This document shows, piece by piece, positions 18,031 to 58,415 of a DNA stretch of 64,000 nt. The first letter of the stretch is position 1. Each line of letters begins with the position of its first letter. The position numbers and the translations under genes were made by a program. Origin of the DNA: a virus; IMG/VR virus record IMGVR_UViG_3300045988_071562, positions 18,522 to 82,521 of that record. One strand, 5' to 3'. Below the pieces are notes generated by a model that ran no database searches, had not been told where the DNA came from, and was given only the letters and a program-made list of their open reading frames with translations.

Positions 18031-19503
18031 TCATTCTTCGTTAGATGGAGAATTTGCCATTGGTTCTGTTTTGGACGGATTTTGAAACTTTCCGTCAAGT
18101 AATTGCTGTGCTTTCTGCATTTCCGCTTCTGGGTTTGCCAGTTCTGGATAAATTGTTCCAAGATAAGGAAGGCTCATTTCATAGACTTTCTGCGGATCAC
18201 TAAATAAGCCGCAAGTAATCAGTGCGATAAGCGGATGAATTTTATTTTTGAACAGATAATCAAGCGCTTGTGCTTTTACAAGCATATTGTCTGTTGGGTT
18301 TCTGGTTATCTTCACATCGAAATCTCGTGTTGAGATATTAACATCATTTGATGTGCCACGGATAATATTCAGAATAATTCTGGCAGATTCCTTTTCAGCT
18401 TCCTTGGTGAATGCTTCTACCAATTTTGCATCTCTCTCTGCAAAATCCCATCCATTACGAAGGTATACGGCATTTCCTGTATCCCCTCCGCTGTTGCTTT
18501 GACGGTTTGGCATTGCTTCCACAATCAGCATATTATTGTAGATATCATCCTTTGCAACCTGGCTTTCTGATTGATTTAGTTCAGCGGTCATCAGTTCAAC
18601 ATCCGACTGACATCCATTTCCGGTATCTTTAACAGAGATAGCACCAAGCTTTACCATTTTCAAAAACTCGTTTTCGTCTACCTCGCAGTTTTTAAATTTC
18701 ATAAAGGCTTGCACAAACTGTTCCACGCCATTTAATCTATCAGACTGATATTTGTTGATTGCATCGAATAAGGTGATTGCAATTTCAACATCCGAAAGTC
18801 TATCGTGATTATTCGGGCATTCAACAATAGGAATACCACCAAAACCATTGATGCCGTAATTGGTCACTTTTCCATTCTTGATTTCAAAAAACTGGTTCTT
18901 TGAATAACATAAATAATATTGCTGTTCATCTTCATCTTTTAAAATCTGTACGGAAAGCATTGCTTTCCCATTTCTCTGCGAATATACAATGTAACAATCA
19001 CCTGGATATGGGATGAAAATTCTAAATGGAGGTAAATCTCCGTTTTTTGTCCAGTCCTCTTCTTTCAGAATAGCCTTATAAGAAGTTCCTGTTGCGCTTT
19101 GGTATATTGCCCTCTGGATGTTTCTTGCATCTGCATTGGCTTCATCCAGATAATCATTCAGAAGGTCAACTTGCTCATTTATTTTTTTATCTGCTTTTTT
19201 CTTTTTGCATACATATTGGATTGGCTCCCCGCAAATTTGTCCAGCTTTAAATTTCACAGTTTCAAATGCGTGATTTTCAACCACTCTGTTATTAACTTCT
19301 GGACGGACTATTTTATTTCGATATAATATTGGCTGATCGCCTTTCATGTACCGATACAAGTAATCAATCAATGTTCGGTTTCTATTATGTATACCAATTG
19401 TATCTGACACTACTTTTACTACATTTTGTGGAGTGATTCGGTCAACGCCTGTGTAGGCTACTTTTCGCCCGAACTCACCTCGGCATAAATCTACAAAATT
19501 CAT
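18031..19503 (-). CDS. Portal protein (SPP1 gp6-like)
   Basis: About 490 aa directly after the terminase region. The start is ATG 19503 or 19527, both with weak SDs. Confidence 0.85.
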   Translation of the reverse strand: MNFVDLCRGEFGRKVAYTGVDRITPQNVVKVVSDTIGIHNRNRTLIDYLYRYMKGDQPILYRNKIVRPEVNNRVVENHAFETVKFKAGQICGEPIQYVCKKKKADKKINEQVDLLNDYLDEANADARNIQRAIYQSATGTSYKAILKEEDWTKNGDLPPFRIFIPYPGDCYIVYSQRNGKAMLSVQILKDEDEQQYYLCYSKNQFFEIKNGKVTNYGINGFGGIPIVECPNNHDRLSDVEIAITLFDAINKYQSDRLNGVEQFVQAFMKFKNCEVDENEFLKMVKLGAISVKDTGNGCQSDVELMTAELNQSESQVAKDDIYNNMLIVEAMPNRQSNSGGDTGNAVYLRNGWDFAERDAKLVEAFTKEAEKESARIILNIIRGTSNDVNISTRDFDVKITRNPTDNMLVKAQALDYLFKNKIHPLIALITCGLFSDPQKVYEMSLPYLGTIYPELANPEAEMQKAQQLLDGKFQNPSKTEPMANSPSNEE

Positions 19504-53150: not shown

Positions 53151-53747
53151 TTAATCCTCGTCTGATTCAAAGATTGAAGAGGAAAAGATACAAGCCGGGC
53201 GAACACCGCAGTCATAGAAGCAGTCATTGCTGTTGACGTAACCCGAGGAGGAAACAACGGCTACGCTCTTAAAATAATCATTGTAAGGTGTACTCCATGG
53301 TGTAATAAGCCACCACCATTTATCCATATTTGGCAAATATTTCCTGTATTTTCTGTATTCATCCACGGTTAAGAGTGAAATCTTATCTCTACAAGTTCCA
53401 TATTCAGTCTGCCCGTCCAATGCCAACAGGTTACGGTCAAATTCAACAACTGCATTTCCATCGAAAGGCGTATTAATTTTTTCTAAAAATGATGTGTTTA
53501 ATTCTTCTCTTAAAGAACTTTCTTTCCAATTGCTGGAATCTGAATCAAACATTCTTGTTTTACCATAAAAACTATTTAAAATTGCAAAATATCCATCTGG
53601 AAGCTTGTCCAGGATCATCCATTCCATACCGGAAATTTCAACCACTTCCCCGGGTTTCGGAGTGCCCATGTGTTTCTTTTTGTAATCCTCGAATTCCTCT
53701 GTAATTCTTTTTATTTCTGACTCAAAATATTTCAAATCTTTTTTCAT
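53151..53747 (-). CDS. DUF6273-like protein, paralog A
   Basis: ..WWWLITPWSTPYNDYFKSVAVVSSSGYVNSNDCFYDCGVRPACIFSS.. Confidence 0.45.
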   Translation of the reverse strand: MKKDLKYFESEIKRITEEFEDYKKKHMGTPKPGEVVEISGMEWMILDKLPDGYFAILNSFYGKTRMFDSDSSNWKESSLREELNTSFLEKINTPFDGNAVVEFDRNLLALDGQTEYGTCRDKISLLTVDEYRKYRKYLPNMDKWWWLITPWSTPYNDYFKSVAVVSSSGYVNSNDCFYDCGVRPACIFSSSIFESDED

Positions 53748-53749
53748 TT

Positions 53750-54349
53750 TTATTCCTCCACCTTAGATACAAAGAGATTAGATTTTAAGATACAAACTGG
53801 GCGAACACCGTTGACACCGATGCAGACATAGTTGCCGACGTTACCCGAGGAGGAAACAACGGCAACGCTATTCCATCCGCGTTCTTTTGTTGACCAAGAT
53901 GTACATGTCCAATACCAGTCATTAAGTTTTTTGTTCGGAGTTAATTCCGTATATTTTCTTGCTTCATCAAATGTAAGAGGTCTGATTTTACATTTCACCG
54001 AAACGCCTGTATTCTGACCGTCGACCGTAATAAGATCTGCTTCATGTGTTTCAATATTCTCCGCACCAAATTCCTCTTCAAAATTCGCTAAAATTTCCGT
54101 GTCACAAAGTTCTTTTAATTCAGACTCTAAATAATCTGCATTATCCCCGAATTTTACATTTTCTTTTACAAGGTTAAAAGAAACTATCTTGGTGGTATTT
54201 TCATACTGTTCCAACACTTTGTATTTTCTTTTACCTGTAGTTTGGAATACATCACCAGGGTTCAACTCTGATAATTTGATTTTCCCACTTTTCTCCTGCT
54301 TCTCTAAAAGTTCAACCAGTTCTTTTGCTTTCTTTAAAATTTCATTCAT
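53750..54349 (-). CDS. DUF6273-like protein, paralog B
   Basis: ..WYWTCTSWSTKERGWNSVAVVSSSGNVGNYVCIGVNGVRPVCILKS.. It is a tandem duplicate of the previous gene. Confidence 0.45.
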   Translation of the reverse strand: MNEILKKAKELVELLEKQEKSGKIKLSELNPGDVFQTTGKRKYKVLEQYENTTKIVSFNLVKENVKFGDNADYLESELKELCDTEILANFEEEFGAENIETHEADLITVDGQNTGVSVKCKIRPLTFDEARKYTELTPNKKLNDWYWTCTSWSTKERGWNSVAVVSSSGNVGNYVCIGVNGVRPVCILKSNLFVSKVEE

Positions 54350-55931: not shown

Positions 55932-55963
55932 TTTAATTCTCCTTTTCTTTATTTATATGCTCA

Positions 55964-56086
55964 GTGGCATATGAAACAGGATGAAATAATTTGTCCTATG
56001 TTGAATTGTAATTTCCTGTTCTTTCATTAACTGTTTTATTTTTCCCTGTTGTGCTTTCCGGGCATTCACCCGGATTCATATGCCAC
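55964..56086. repeat. Hairpin-bracketed phased-triplet element (solo copy between the RecT-like and 207-aa genes)
   Basis: 12-bp inverted repeat GTGGCATATGAA (55964-55975) / TTCATATGCCAC (56075-56086). It encloses T(G/A)T triplets in 5-nt phase from 55992 to 56049. Confidence 0.7.
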
Positions 56087-56097
56087 CGATTTTTTAT

Positions 56098-56721
56098 TTA
56101 CTCTACGTGGAATCTTCCATAACCGCTTGTTCTGCCAGACCCGATGCCACATCCAAATCCTGCAAGCTGAATAATATTAACGATCTGCTCAATGGAATAA
56201 ATATTATCTACATATGCAAGTTCGATTTCTGCTGACCATCCGGTAAATCTGTTTAAATGTACAAGAACAGGTTTTCCTTTCTTTGGTGACATTAGTTTTT
56301 CGTCAATGTAATGCTCAGCAAACTTAATCGGTATTAAACCTCCTTTGGCGATAATATTTACTCCAGCTTTGAACTTTGTACTATATGTATCAACCCCATT
56401 TCTTACAACAGCATCGCAAAAACATTTCAATAACCCGAATGCTGTAATGCAAGGTGCATTGTTGGTGAGTGCATCAATAAGGCCTTTTTCTGAGAAATCT
56501 GTAGGTTTTCCATTGTACCAGTGAATTGATGTAATGATTTCTTCCCATACATTTGCTTTTTCAAGGTTCTTTGCCTTGTCTTTTCTCTGATCAATCAGTT
56601 CTCTTGCGGTCACGTCATTCATCTTATTGAGAACTAAGTCTCCGTCTCCGATGATTGTGACTGTTGCGTGCTTAACGTTGATTGCCTGTAACTGAATTCT
56701 TTCTTCTTTTTTAGTTTCCAT
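56098..56721 (-). CDS. Hypothetical 207-aa protein with a Gly-rich RAMP-like C-terminal loop
   Basis: GGAGG SD (56731-56735). The C-terminus reads ..IVNIIQLAGFGCGIGSGRTSGYGRFHVE. The gene is flanked on both sides by the phased-triplet elements. Confidence 0.6.
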   Translation of the reverse strand: METKKEERIQLQAINVKHATVTIIGDGDLVLNKMNDVTARELIDQRKDKAKNLEKANVWEEIITSIHWYNGKPTDFSEKGLIDALTNNAPCITAFGLLKCFCDAVVRNGVDTYSTKFKAGVNIIAKGGLIPIKFAEHYIDEKLMSPKKGKPVLVHLNRFTGWSAEIELAYVDNIYSIEQIVNIIQLAGFGCGIGSGRTSGYGRFHVE

Positions 56722-56815
56722 AATTCTTTTCCTCCGATTTTTTAATAGTTTTTATAGTTTCTGTTTGCGCAAACATTCAAGCAGATTAATCCACAATAGT
56801 TTAATATAAATATAA

Positions 56816-57716
56816 TGTTGTGTTATGTATTTTCGTATGCTGTACTGTGCTATCCTGTAGTGTATTGCGAAAGTAATCCGCTTAAATCTTTGCGTAAATT
56901 TCAGATATGCTTAACTGACAATAGAAAATGTCTTATAGTGTCCTGTATTTTTCTGTAATATGCTGTCCTATATTTTGCTTGCATTGTAGTTCGCTTTCCT
57001 ATTCTTGGCAGATTCTACTGCCAGTTAAATACATCTGTGTTGAATGCTCGGTAGGTAACATGAAGTGTCCTATAGTGTCCTATGCTGTCATATAGTGAGT
57101 TATTCTTTACTTTCCTGTGACATTTTTCATGCCACCTACCCAAAATTCAATTTTCGGAGTGCTGTTTTACAGGCGATATAAAGGTCGTATAATATATATT
57201 GTGTTGTCCTATTTTGAGGTGTATTTCGTTATTTTGTTATATTCTTCATTGACGGTTATACCACCTGTAAAACAGCACTCCGTTAAAATGTTGCGTTGTA
57301 CTTTACTGTTCTGTCTTATCCTGTAGTTTAATATGTTATTTTTTAGTATAGTAAGTGTTCGCAACACTTGTCACTCTGCATAAGTGAAATATTTTGTCCT
57401 GTTCTGTTCTGTCTTGTCTTGTCCTGTCATGTATTGTAGTAAACTTTCTGCTTATGCAGACTGATAAATGCTGTGGTTTCCTACGCTCATAAACCTGTAA
57501 AATAGGTAATTATAGTGCTTTATTGTCCTGTCCTATACTGTTGTTCTGTGTATTATCTTGTGCTATTCTATAGTTTCTGCCTGTTTTACAGGCATATCAA
57601 CGTAGGAATTTCGCCGCTACTGCACTCATGTCCCTACAAGAATAAAGTGTAATATGTGTTGTGCTGTTCTGTTTTGTATTGTATTGTGTTGTTCTGTCGT
57701 ATTATCCTACTCCTGT
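56816..57716. repeat. Eight related units of T(G/A)T triplets in strict 5-nt phase, most bracketed by short inverted repeats
   Basis: Arrays lie at 56816-56868, 56929-56973, 57061-57118, 57200-57242, 57292-57324, 57395-57437 (9 consecutive TGT), 57524-57571 and 57655-57697 (9 consecutive TGT). There is no SD-preceded ORF. Confidence 0.85.
57155..57282. repeat. Perfect 19-bp inverted repeat CGGAGTGCTGTTTTACAGG / CCTGTAAAACAGCACTCCG around a 90-bp segment
   Basis: The arms are 57155-57173 and 57264-57282. The left arm contains TTTACA (57166-57171), which lies 16 bp from TATAAT (57188-57193) inside the segment. Confidence 0.9.
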
Positions 57717-57751
57717 AGGCATATCAGCACAGTAACGGCTTCGATATTTAA

Positions 57752-57949
57752 TTACTGATTACATTTCTTTATGGTAATCGGCATTGTTGGGTGATTAATT
57801 TCCCCATCCTCAAAAACTTTTACGATTTTAACTTTATTGGGATCTCCTGCATTTAAGTAAACCATGTCCCCTACTTTTGGTTCAAAATCCGCTTTGAACA
57901 CATATCCTCTTTTTCCTCCGGCATTTTCAATTTCTACATATTTAATCAT
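57752..57949 (-). CDS. Small beta-rich protein (65 aa)
   Basis: MIKYVEIENAGGKRGYVFKADFEPKVGDMVYLNAGDPNKVKIVKVFEDGEINHPTMPITIKKCNQ. It lies immediately upstream of the repeat locus. Confidence 0.55.
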   Translation of the reverse strand: MIKYVEIENAGGKRGYVFKADFEPKVGDMVYLNAGDPNKVKIVKVFEDGEINHPTMPITIKKCNQ

Positions 57950-57968: not shown

Positions 57969-58415
57969 TTAATTAATCAGTTCCCAAACTTCTTCGTATT
58001 CAGAAATATTCTGGTATTTCTGCTTCACTGCCAGAAGTTCATTTCGGCAACGCTCTAAAAGTGCTTCGTATTCATCCGGCTGTTTCAAAATAAGCTGTGT
58101 TGGCTTATATCCGCTTTTTCCATCTGTTTTGTAAAACACTCGAATTGCTGTCGGCTTTGGCTTGTTGTCAATATCCTGTTCCACGATTTTTAACTGACAA
58201 ACTATCTGTCTGGCTTCTTGGATTCTGTATTTTTCAGCTGCTATGGAATCATCCCATGTAAAGCACTTATGTAATTCTGTACTTTCGTCCCTTGCTTTCT
58301 CAAGAATCTGTTGTGGTGTAGCTGATTCCATCTGATCGCAAATTTCCATGATTTCAGACGCACATTTTGTAGCATCTGCCTTGAAAAAATGTTTTCCCCA
58401 TGTTGCTGTTAGCAT
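57969..58415 (-). CDS. Hypothetical protein (148 aa)
   Basis: ..TELHKCFTWDDSIAAEKYRIQEARQIVCQLKIV.. looks like a conserved phage motif, but I cannot name the family. Confidence 0.5.
   Translation of the reverse strand: MLTATWGKHFFKADATKCASEIMEICDQMESATPQQILEKARDESTELHKCFTWDDSIAAEKYRIQEARQIVCQLKIVEQDIDNKPKPTAIRVFYKTDGKSGYKPTQLILKQPDEYEALLERCRNELLAVKQKYQNISEYEEVWELIN

Follow-up and report, generated by a model that had tools for sequence, protein, structure and literature searches.

A Vipr-like protein and its flanking five-base repeats in a phage genome: a probable VIPR-type system with guide-like RNAs enclosed in stems

A 64,000-nucleotide (nt) stretch of viral DNA (positions 18,522 to 82,521 of IMG/VR virus record IMGVR_UViG_3300045988_071562), which we call the window, carries on its minus strand a gene for a 207-amino-acid (aa) protein, and this gene lies between two non-coding regions that hold five-base repeats. 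An earlier note, made from the sequence of the window, had described phased triplets on both sides of the gene and a RAMP-like glycine-rich loop (G-loop) at the C-terminus of the protein, and had offered an exonuclease as another reading. Here we describe the protein, the repeats and their relatives in other viruses, and we argue that the locus is probably a VIPR-type system, from a clade that writes its guide RNAs in a way unlike the published ones.

VIPR (Viral Interference Programmable Repeat) systems, reported in 2026, follow an RNA-guided DNA recognition logic and were proposed there as an ancestor of the CRISPR RAMPs (10.64898/2026.04.26.720920,.720927). The published set is given as 667 systems in seven types (10.64898/2026.04.26.720920). 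The characterized member to which we refer throughout is the type II system of Escherichia phage SUSP1 (PDB 36pp).

RESULTS

Organization of the repeat array

The non-coding flanks of the gene measure 1030 nt upstream (56722-57751) and 166 nt downstream (55932-56097). Both contain triplet tracts of period 5, which bears out the phased triplets of the earlier note. Of all 64 triplets, TGT on the plus strand, which reads ACA on that of the gene, is alone in forming long period-5 runs within the 64-kb window, and two runs of nine exact ACA units are present (57395-57437 and 57655-57697). Nine guide-like units can be delimited on the gene strand, eight upstream of the gene and one downstream. Each consists of 9 to 13 pentamers, in which a fixed triplet, [A>G][C>U]A, is followed by two free bases (NN), and is bracketed by complementary arms that form a stem of about 10 to 30 bp. 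We are highly confident of this anatomy. The features are, in gene direction:

57613..57739, minus strand: guide unit 1, arms 57739-57718 and 57627-57613, tract of 10 pentamers at 57702-57653
57478..57608, minus strand: guide unit 2, arms 57608-57584 and 57502-57478, tract of 12 pentamers at 57571-57512 with some triplets degenerate
57360..57475, minus strand: guide unit 3, arms 57475-57451 and 57384-57360, tract of 10 pentamers at 57437-57388, 9 of them with exact ACA
57286..57369, minus strand: guide unit 4, short arms 57369-57360 and 57295-57286, tract of 9 pentamers at 57339-57295
57155..57282, minus strand: guide unit 5, 27-bp stem of 57282-57256 with 57181-57155, tract of 10 pentamers at 57242-57193
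57040..57150, minus strand: guide unit 6, arms 57150-57127 and 57063-57040, tract of 11 pentamers at 57118-57064
56920..57003, minus strand: guide unit 7, short arms 57003-56995 and 56928-56920, tract of 9 pentamers at 56971-56927
56764..56898, minus strand: guide unit 8, arms 56898-56874 and 56788-56764, tract of 11 pentamers at 56863-56809
56751..56780, minus strand: promoter-like TTGAAT-N18-TATAAA with the palindrome GTTTGCGCAAAC, overlapping the 3' arm of unit 8
56098..56721, minus strand: vipr-like gene, 207 aa, predicted single-RRM RAMP
55964..56087, minus strand: guide unit 9, downstream of the gene, 12-bp stem of 56087-56075 with 55975-55964, tract of 13 pentamers at 56049-55985

In seven of the nine units the predicted fold leaves the tract unpaired inside a closing stem, and in five of these the z-score lies between -3.5 and -9.6; the closing stem of unit 5 is the extreme case (-46.9 kcal/mol, z = -9.6). 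The NN series of unit 1 reads CG GA AC AT AT AA GA GC AC TA, and the loop of this unit is hypervariable among sister phages. In unit 9 the triplets are degenerate with the third A kept. The units are packed nearly without spacer, and the 3' arm of unit 3 and the 5' arm of unit 4 overlap (57360..57384; AAGTGTTGCG), which makes alternative pairings possible.

The promoter and operator of the earlier note do not stand as proposed. TTGAAT (56780-56775), TATAAA (56756-56751) and the 12-bp palindrome between them (56763-56774) are all present, and the TTGAAT/TATAAA element is invariant among sister phages; the pair is not listed in a promoter scan of the region, which itself ran at chance level. In the stem of unit 8, TTTACGCAAAGATTTAAGCGGATTA pairs with TAATCTGCTTGAATGTTTGCGCAAA, and the 3' arm holds TTGAAT and most of the palindrome. 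The symmetry of the palindrome is thus mostly explained by its location in this arm, and the element may or may not act as a promoter or operator.

No CRISPR-like array was found in the 64-kb window, and no 20-mer occurs three or more times in it. Rfam gave no family and no hammerhead ribozyme for the repeat region, and a blastn search with the locus found no match among 50,697 phage genomes.

Profile searches place the 207-aa protein in the Vipr family

The protein ends in ...IIQLAGFGCGIGSGRTSGYGRFHVE. In Pfam the RAMPs family matches at E 0.006, under the gathering score and over aa 146-204 only, a stretch that takes in the C-terminal G-loop. PHROG 4652 matches the protein and is unannotated, and NCBIfam and PADLOC gave nothing useful and no nuclease family. 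An AlphaFold2 model built with 49 homologs has a predicted local distance difference test score (pLDDT) of 85.8 and a predicted template modeling score (pTM) of 0.80. In the model, beta1 leads through a helical insert to helix 1, and a thumb hairpin precedes helix 2 and the G-loop, with the following parts placed on the protein:

aa 36-87: helical insertion
aa 136-160 (approximately): beta-hairpin thumb
aa 188-204: G-loop GFGCGIGSGRTSGYGRF

The 50 best fold matches in PDB by Foldseek are all Cas7-type backbone RAMPs (Csm3, Cmr4 and type VII Cas7), at E 8e-5 to 1e-3, probability 1.0, template modeling (TM) scores of 0.35 to 0.46 and 10 to 15% identity, and none of these 50 has a nuclease fold. 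The check that the earlier note had called for, RRM/RAMP or PD-(D/E)xK on an AlphaFold model, therefore comes out as RAMP, with Cas7-type matches and no lambda-Exo/YqaJ-type fold.

The closest relation came from sequence profiles. With the single sequence, the best PDB match is the SUSP1 Vipr protein at E 0.05. An exhaustive search of representative sequences gave 418 clusters, and many distant cluster members score 25 to 42 bits against SUSP1 Vipr, bridging the families. An alignment of close homologs aligned only 51 C-terminal residues to SUSP1 Vipr, so that a broader profile was needed; this was built from 70 diverse members with the window protein as seed. Its sole significant match in PDB is SUSP1 Vipr, at E 3.1e-14 and near full length, and hhalign of the family against SUSP1 Vipr gave 98.6% probability and E 5.7e-16 over 169 columns. 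On these two results we regard membership of the 207-aa protein in the Vipr family, as a predicted minimal single-RRM RAMP, as established. The RAMP-like reading of the C-terminus, which the earlier note had drawn from the G-loop, is thereby supported by the weak Pfam match, the Cas7-type folds and the profile match alike.

Comparison of related loci reveals the fixed triplet, the strand and the stems

We compared the locus with 80 related viral loci at 69-100% protein identity and 55 loci of a deeper clade at 26-47%, all of them on IMG/VR viral contigs and numbered with the prefix L. A motif-free lag analysis of these loci showed enrichment at lags 5 and 10 only, and the unbiased consensus triplet was ACA in 219 of 239 tracts and ATA in 14. 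As a positive control, the SUSP1 locus was run through the identical pipeline and yielded GGT at the published vrRNA positions. When an AYA model was applied to the 135 related loci, 403 tracts were found in gene sense and none in antisense. Nearly all lie next to the gene, 370 within 1.5 kb upstream and 32 within 250 nt downstream, with 1 elsewhere. The logo of 125 distinct tracts is A (.93), C (.72) with T (.23), A (.98), N, N; tracts count 6 to 15 units and use all 16 NN dinucleotides. Among close alleles, position 3 of the triplet accounts for only 4 of 150 changes, while positions 1 and 2 toggle between A and G and between C and U. Loci of the deep clade have ACA, ATA or AAA tracts and never GGY, and their G-loops contain GSGR, GSRR, GTRR or GAHR.

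Further G-loop variants within the deep clade are GLGAHR in L124, GVGSRR in L125-L129, GIGTRR in L132-L137 and GIGSQR in L121. Locus L124 has tracts dominated by ATA in place of ACA, a hint of further sub-codes in the family.

Flanks of one unit pair much better with each other than with those of other units. A helix score of at least 16 was reached by 70% of the cognate flank pairs, as against 13% of the flanks from mismatched units. G.U pairs within the helices number 312 in gene sense and 76 on the opposite strand. For unit 1, RNAalifold predicts 31 pairs, with 2 compensatory double changes, 12 one-sided changes that preserve pairing and 5 broken cells out of 248. This argues for an array that would fold as RNA transcribed in the direction of the gene, and since the folded RNA would be that of the gene strand, the fixed triplet would be RYA and not URU.

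The loops behave differently from the stems. Thirteen distinct arrays were compared from phages whose protein is 99-100% identical (alignment of L001-L025). The stems are nearly invariant across these arrays, while the loops of units 1 to 6 are swapped wholesale, with 2 to 5 alleles each that differ in length, and this is seen even where the protein is 100% identical. The variation has a polarity: units 7 and 8, next to the gene, hardly vary, unlike the six distal units, and the alleles of unit 8 differ by exactly one inserted pentamer. Taken with the protein, the 5-base-periodic repeats are most likely guide RNAs of the vipr-like protein. The earlier note had suggested an RNA-binding protein of RAMP type working with the neighboring repeats in a phage that has no CRISPR; this is supported, and the repeats have the anatomy of Vipr guides.

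The end of a tract is often ACATT, followed by ACATC, GCATC-ACAAC, ATAAC or ATATT (L034:3874-3939, L049:3745-3805 and 56809-56818 of the window). This recurrent end may be a conserved 3' terminal unit rather than guide.

Residues that contact the guanines in SUSP1 Vipr differ together with the triplet

In SUSP1 Vipr, the first guanine of the repeat is read by H17 and D177 and the second by R138 and W178 (10.64898/2026.04.26.720927). In the alignment to the window protein these positions become N32 (H17), S195 (D177), L156 (R138) and G196 (W178). Where identity to the window protein is 37% or more, beta1 contains LNKM, the thumb contains LNRF and the short G-loop reads GIGSGR, so all four guanine-reading residues are replaced across this clade. 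At 22-31% identity the sequences are PLI.H, RYR and G[IV]G[ED]WRPEK, which is SUSP1-like, and distant members thus retain the H...RYR...[DE]W set. The residue set and the triplet correlate, H/R/D/W with GGY and N/L/S/G with RYA. The replacement of all guanine-reading residues fits an altered fixed triplet, and we infer that N32, L156, S195 and G196 would read RYA.

Searches for targets

Targets were searched, independently of strand, with the published NNx rule, in which the NN bases pair and one base is skipped; in the published systems the targets fall mostly within genes that belong to competing mobile elements. A guide of 10 units specifies 20 bases, which is too few for an inexact search of such large collections. 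Three indirect results are suggestive of targets that have a 3-nt period and lie in coding sequence. The NN composition of 108 guides correlates with codon positions 1-2 in the sense direction (r = 0.61), as against 0.09 and 0.14 for the other frames, -0.31 for antisense and 0.07 for genomic dinucleotides. The 15-unit guide of sister locus L045 can be read as G-L-S-Q/H-K/N-T-I/M-A-D/E-D/E-L-G-V-K/N-D/E, and it matches an open reading frame (ORF) with a LuxR/GerE-type helix-turn-helix (HTH) in frame at 28 of 30 bases, including 6 of the 8 bases outside the search core.

The two best local matches are made by guides of two different clades, and both fall, sense and in frame, in the metallo-beta-lactamase (MBL)-fold gene of a third sister clade (21/24 and 19/22). 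The own MBL allele of the guide-bearing phage matches at 18/24, with mismatches over four units. Out of eight neighbor genes the MBL-fold gene is the only one enriched, with matches of at least 0.85 for 2 of 175 guides and for 0 of 1750 shuffles. Unit 2 of the window matches this gene below threshold (19/24).

Among candidates that we tried and dropped, the core of the L045 guide matched an HTH gene in viral contigs in frame, and this was rejected as a target since its outer units matched 3 of 10, which is chance. For sister guides, exact searches gave no match for L049 and L052 in viral contigs and none for the 12-unit pattern of L045 in genomes. When 108 guides were compared with the window and the 80 loci, no skip rule from 0 to 3 stood out.

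Partner gene and genomic context

The remaining genes mentioned in this work are:

57969..58415, minus strand: candidate accessory (vap-like) gene, 148 aa, PHROG 15946
57752..57949, minus strand: 65-aa ORF between the 148-aa gene and the array
53750..54349 and 53151..53747, both minus strand: neighboring paralogous ORFs of about 198 aa
51770..52540, minus strand: MBL-fold gene, 256 aa

In 123 of the 131 related loci, among them 47 of the deep clade, the array is directly preceded on the same strand by a gene for a partner of about 145 aa, and the 148-aa neighbor in the window is a likely candidate for the accessory protein. Searches of Pfam, of PDB sequences and of folds gave no match for it, and it is not similar to Vap1 of SUSP1. 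Its model is moderate (pLDDT 76.9, pTM 0.47), and the alignment of its family has 28 invariant positions, such as H49, C51-W54 and G102-P105. The 65-aa ORF is present in the closest phages L143 and L144, is not called in L142 and L145, and falls outside the widely conserved neighbors.

The window also has RecT-like (phrog_2185), SbcC-like and SSB genes nearby, besides other genes. In the 131 related loci the RecT-like gene is adjacent in 37 and the SbcC-like gene in 55 only, so this recombination module appears to be context and not a part of the system. The MBL-fold gene has Lactamase_B_2 at 36.4 bits and Lactamase_B at 33.1 bits, both above cutoff, and its homolog in sister phages is the gene struck by the two best guide matches. 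It is a better nuclease candidate for the module than the 207-aa protein. An Apyc1 (Anti-Pycsar) label was not adopted for it, as the score of 20.8 bits falls short of the Pfam cutoff of 50. The two paralogous ORFs share the C-terminal motif ...W.TPWS/TSWS...SVAVVSSSG.V......GVRP.CI...

The exact 207-aa protein occurs on at least 1000 public contigs (2067 index blocks), which makes the phage very common among public metagenomes. The longest of these measure about 80 kb, and we take the phage genome to be of about this size. A near-identical protein on a 1.1-Mb contig of an Anaerobutyricum soehngenii metagenome-assembled genome suggests that this species is the host, possibly with lysogeny.

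DISCUSSION

The locus described here joins a RAMP of the Vipr family to an array of five-base repeats that have the layout of Vipr guides, and we consider it probable that it is a VIPR-type system of a clade whose guide RNAs are written differently from the published ones. The variant looks undescribed in two respects, namely an ACA triplet where GGY is published and guides that appear to lie in hairpin loops. We are moderately confident of the following mechanism. The array would be transcribed together with, or ahead of, the vipr-like gene, and the long stems would be cut, plausibly by host RNase III. One protomer would bind per pentamer, sequestering the RYA triplet through the beta1 strand, the thumb and the G-loop pocket. 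The NN dinucleotides would then be displayed to pair with DNA, one base being skipped per unit (NNx, the codon wobble position), and the outcome would be the silencing of genes of competing phages.

Several results count against this interpretation. Exact searches with one skipped base found no target for window units 1, 3 and 8 in viral contigs, for unit 6 in metagenomes or for unit 2 in genomes, and the window guides have no self-target within the window. The match of the L045 guide to a LuxR-type gene sits in a contig of 64% GC, so the gene is homologous to the true target rather than identical with it. The enrichment in the MBL-fold gene is about p 0.005 prior to correction for the eight genes tested. 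The sense, frame-0 bias of the best hits had to be discarded as evidence, as it was equal in shuffled guides. A promoter and terminator scan of the array region gave chance results (10 promoter-like sites versus 8.2 +/- 2.9 expected). Finally, characterized Vipr systems have another fixed triplet, other residues at the G-reading positions and another RNA architecture, and it follows that the skip rule and the preference for DNA or RNA may differ as well.

The alternative that fares best is that the locus belongs, with nothing unusual about it, to a published VIPR type (seven are described), its ACA repeat being among the "related consensus" logos of fig S17; it would then be new only as one more locus. 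The protein family is indeed linked by sequence to SUSP1 Vipr, and it has members in NCBI nr, such as DAQ91198.1, a cluster member automatically named "Cas system-associated RAMP superfamily protein", which the PSI-BLAST of nr by the authors of the VIPR paper probably reached. Against this, the alternative repeats that the paper names in its text are NNNGG, YNNNG and NNNNG, with the G always kept, and its abstract, results and discussion give GGY/NN only (10.64898/2026.04.26.720920). In the text of the same paper "stem-loop" does not appear, "hairpin" is used for the SUSP1 tail only and stem-enclosed guides are not mentioned (10.64898/2026.04.26.720920). We find this alternative rather unlikely but not negligible.

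It is improbable, in our judgment, that the protein binds the ACA-repeat RNA for a purpose other than guiding, the RNA serving as a regulatory, sponge or assembly site that controls the recombination genes or the protein itself, in the manner of the Bacillus trp RNA-binding attenuation protein (TRAP). The exact scans that gave no target for the window guides, the near invariance of units 7 and 8 and the position of the array inside a RecT/SSB/SbcC-like module would all agree with such a role. A mere binding site, however, would need neither 16 different NN dinucleotides nor wholesale swaps of loops at identical protein. The homolog in SUSP1 was shown to use such repeats as guides, the NN composition resembles codon positions 1-2, and sister guides match a rival allele in frame.

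It seems very improbable that the repeats function at the DNA level, whether as iterons, an origin of replication or sites of frequent recombination for the RecT module, and that the protein binds them in this form. The locus does lie inside a replication and recombination module, and the tracts are A-rich and phased. The strand asymmetry is absolute, however, with every one of the 403 tracts in gene sense, and G.U pairs are four times commoner on the gene strand than on the opposite one. Compensatory and G.U-to-G-C changes in the stems and the RNA-binding RAMP fold predicted for the protein also speak against DNA as the bound form.

The exonuclease proposed in the earlier note as a PD-(D/E)xK partner of RecT, on the grounds that the gene directly precedes that of the RecT-like protein and that AEHYIDEKL may hold a D/ExK, can be rejected, as the model has a RAMP fold in whose thumb hairpin DEKLMSP falls, neither the structural matches nor Pfam, NCBIfam and PADLOC include a nuclease, the profile places the protein with SUSP1 Vipr, and the adjacency to RecT in 37 of 131 loci contrasts with that of the array and the 148-aa gene in nearly all.

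Returning to the VIPR-type interpretation, we would go one step further with about even confidence. An abundant clade of gut phages may have rewired the scaffold code, reading A-pyrimidine-A through N32, L156, S195 and G196, with guides in long unit-specific hairpins, which would probably be RNase III substrates, and no shared tail. Such a second alphabet for noncontiguous RNA-guided DNA recognition would be naturally orthogonal to the published one, and the guide cassettes would be exchanged between rivals and aimed at the alleles that these rivals hold of shared genes. If a large and common clade uses another triplet together with other residues, the scaffold code of VIPR can evolve. The covariation of protein and RNA, H/R/D/W going with GGY and N/L/S/G with RYA, is a possible recognition rule that can be tested directly, and orthogonal pairs of Vipr and guide could serve for multiplexed repression in one cell. 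The stem-enclosed guides suggest another route of guide maturation. The hints that a guide hits the allele of a rival and spares the own copy bear on the competition among related phages of the human gut.

Comparison with known systems

The closest known system is the type II VIPR of SUSP1, which is experimentally characterized; the system of the window is a predicted one. Both have a single-RRM RAMP of about 200 aa with a thumb and a G-loop. Both are phage-encoded, without a CRISPR array or cas genes, and have non-coding arrays on the same strand on both sides of the gene. In both, the units are of 5 nt, with three fixed and two free bases, and tracts count 9 to 16 units in SUSP1 and 6 to 15 here. 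The free bases are hypervariable among related phages, each locus includes a small partner gene, and there are hints of wobble-skipping targets in the genes of rival phages.

The differences lie in how the guide is written and probably read. The triplet is [A>G][C>U]A here (ACA, ATA, GCA) and GGY in SUSP1, and the published variants are not matched either. The guanine contacts H17, R138, D177 and W178 are replaced by N, L, S and G, and the G-loop is shorter, without the PEK insert. Whereas the SUSP1 RNA has a common, invariant and structured 3' tail with a pseudoknot, here a stem specific to each unit closes the loop that holds the tract. Eight units stand upstream and one downstream, compared with one and three in SUSP1, and the partner has neither similarity to Vap1 nor a known fold.

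The Cas7 proteins of CRISPR class 1 (Csm3, Cmr4 and type VII Cas7) share with the window protein the RRM core, the thumb hairpin and the G-rich loop, and they are its best structural matches. They oligomerize along a guide RNA with periodic base flipping. In contrast to CRISPR class 1, the window lacks a CRISPR array, cas genes and a second type of subunit, and PADLOC gave no match. The 5-nt period is written in the RNA here, whereas in class 1 systems a period of 6 nt is imposed on a contiguous spacer.

TRAP is likewise an oligomer that reads phased triplets, (G/U)AG with spacers of 2 to 3 nt, in RNA that is otherwise unstructured. Its fold is unrelated to that of the RAMPs, its spacers carry no information, and its role is regulatory and not one of guiding.

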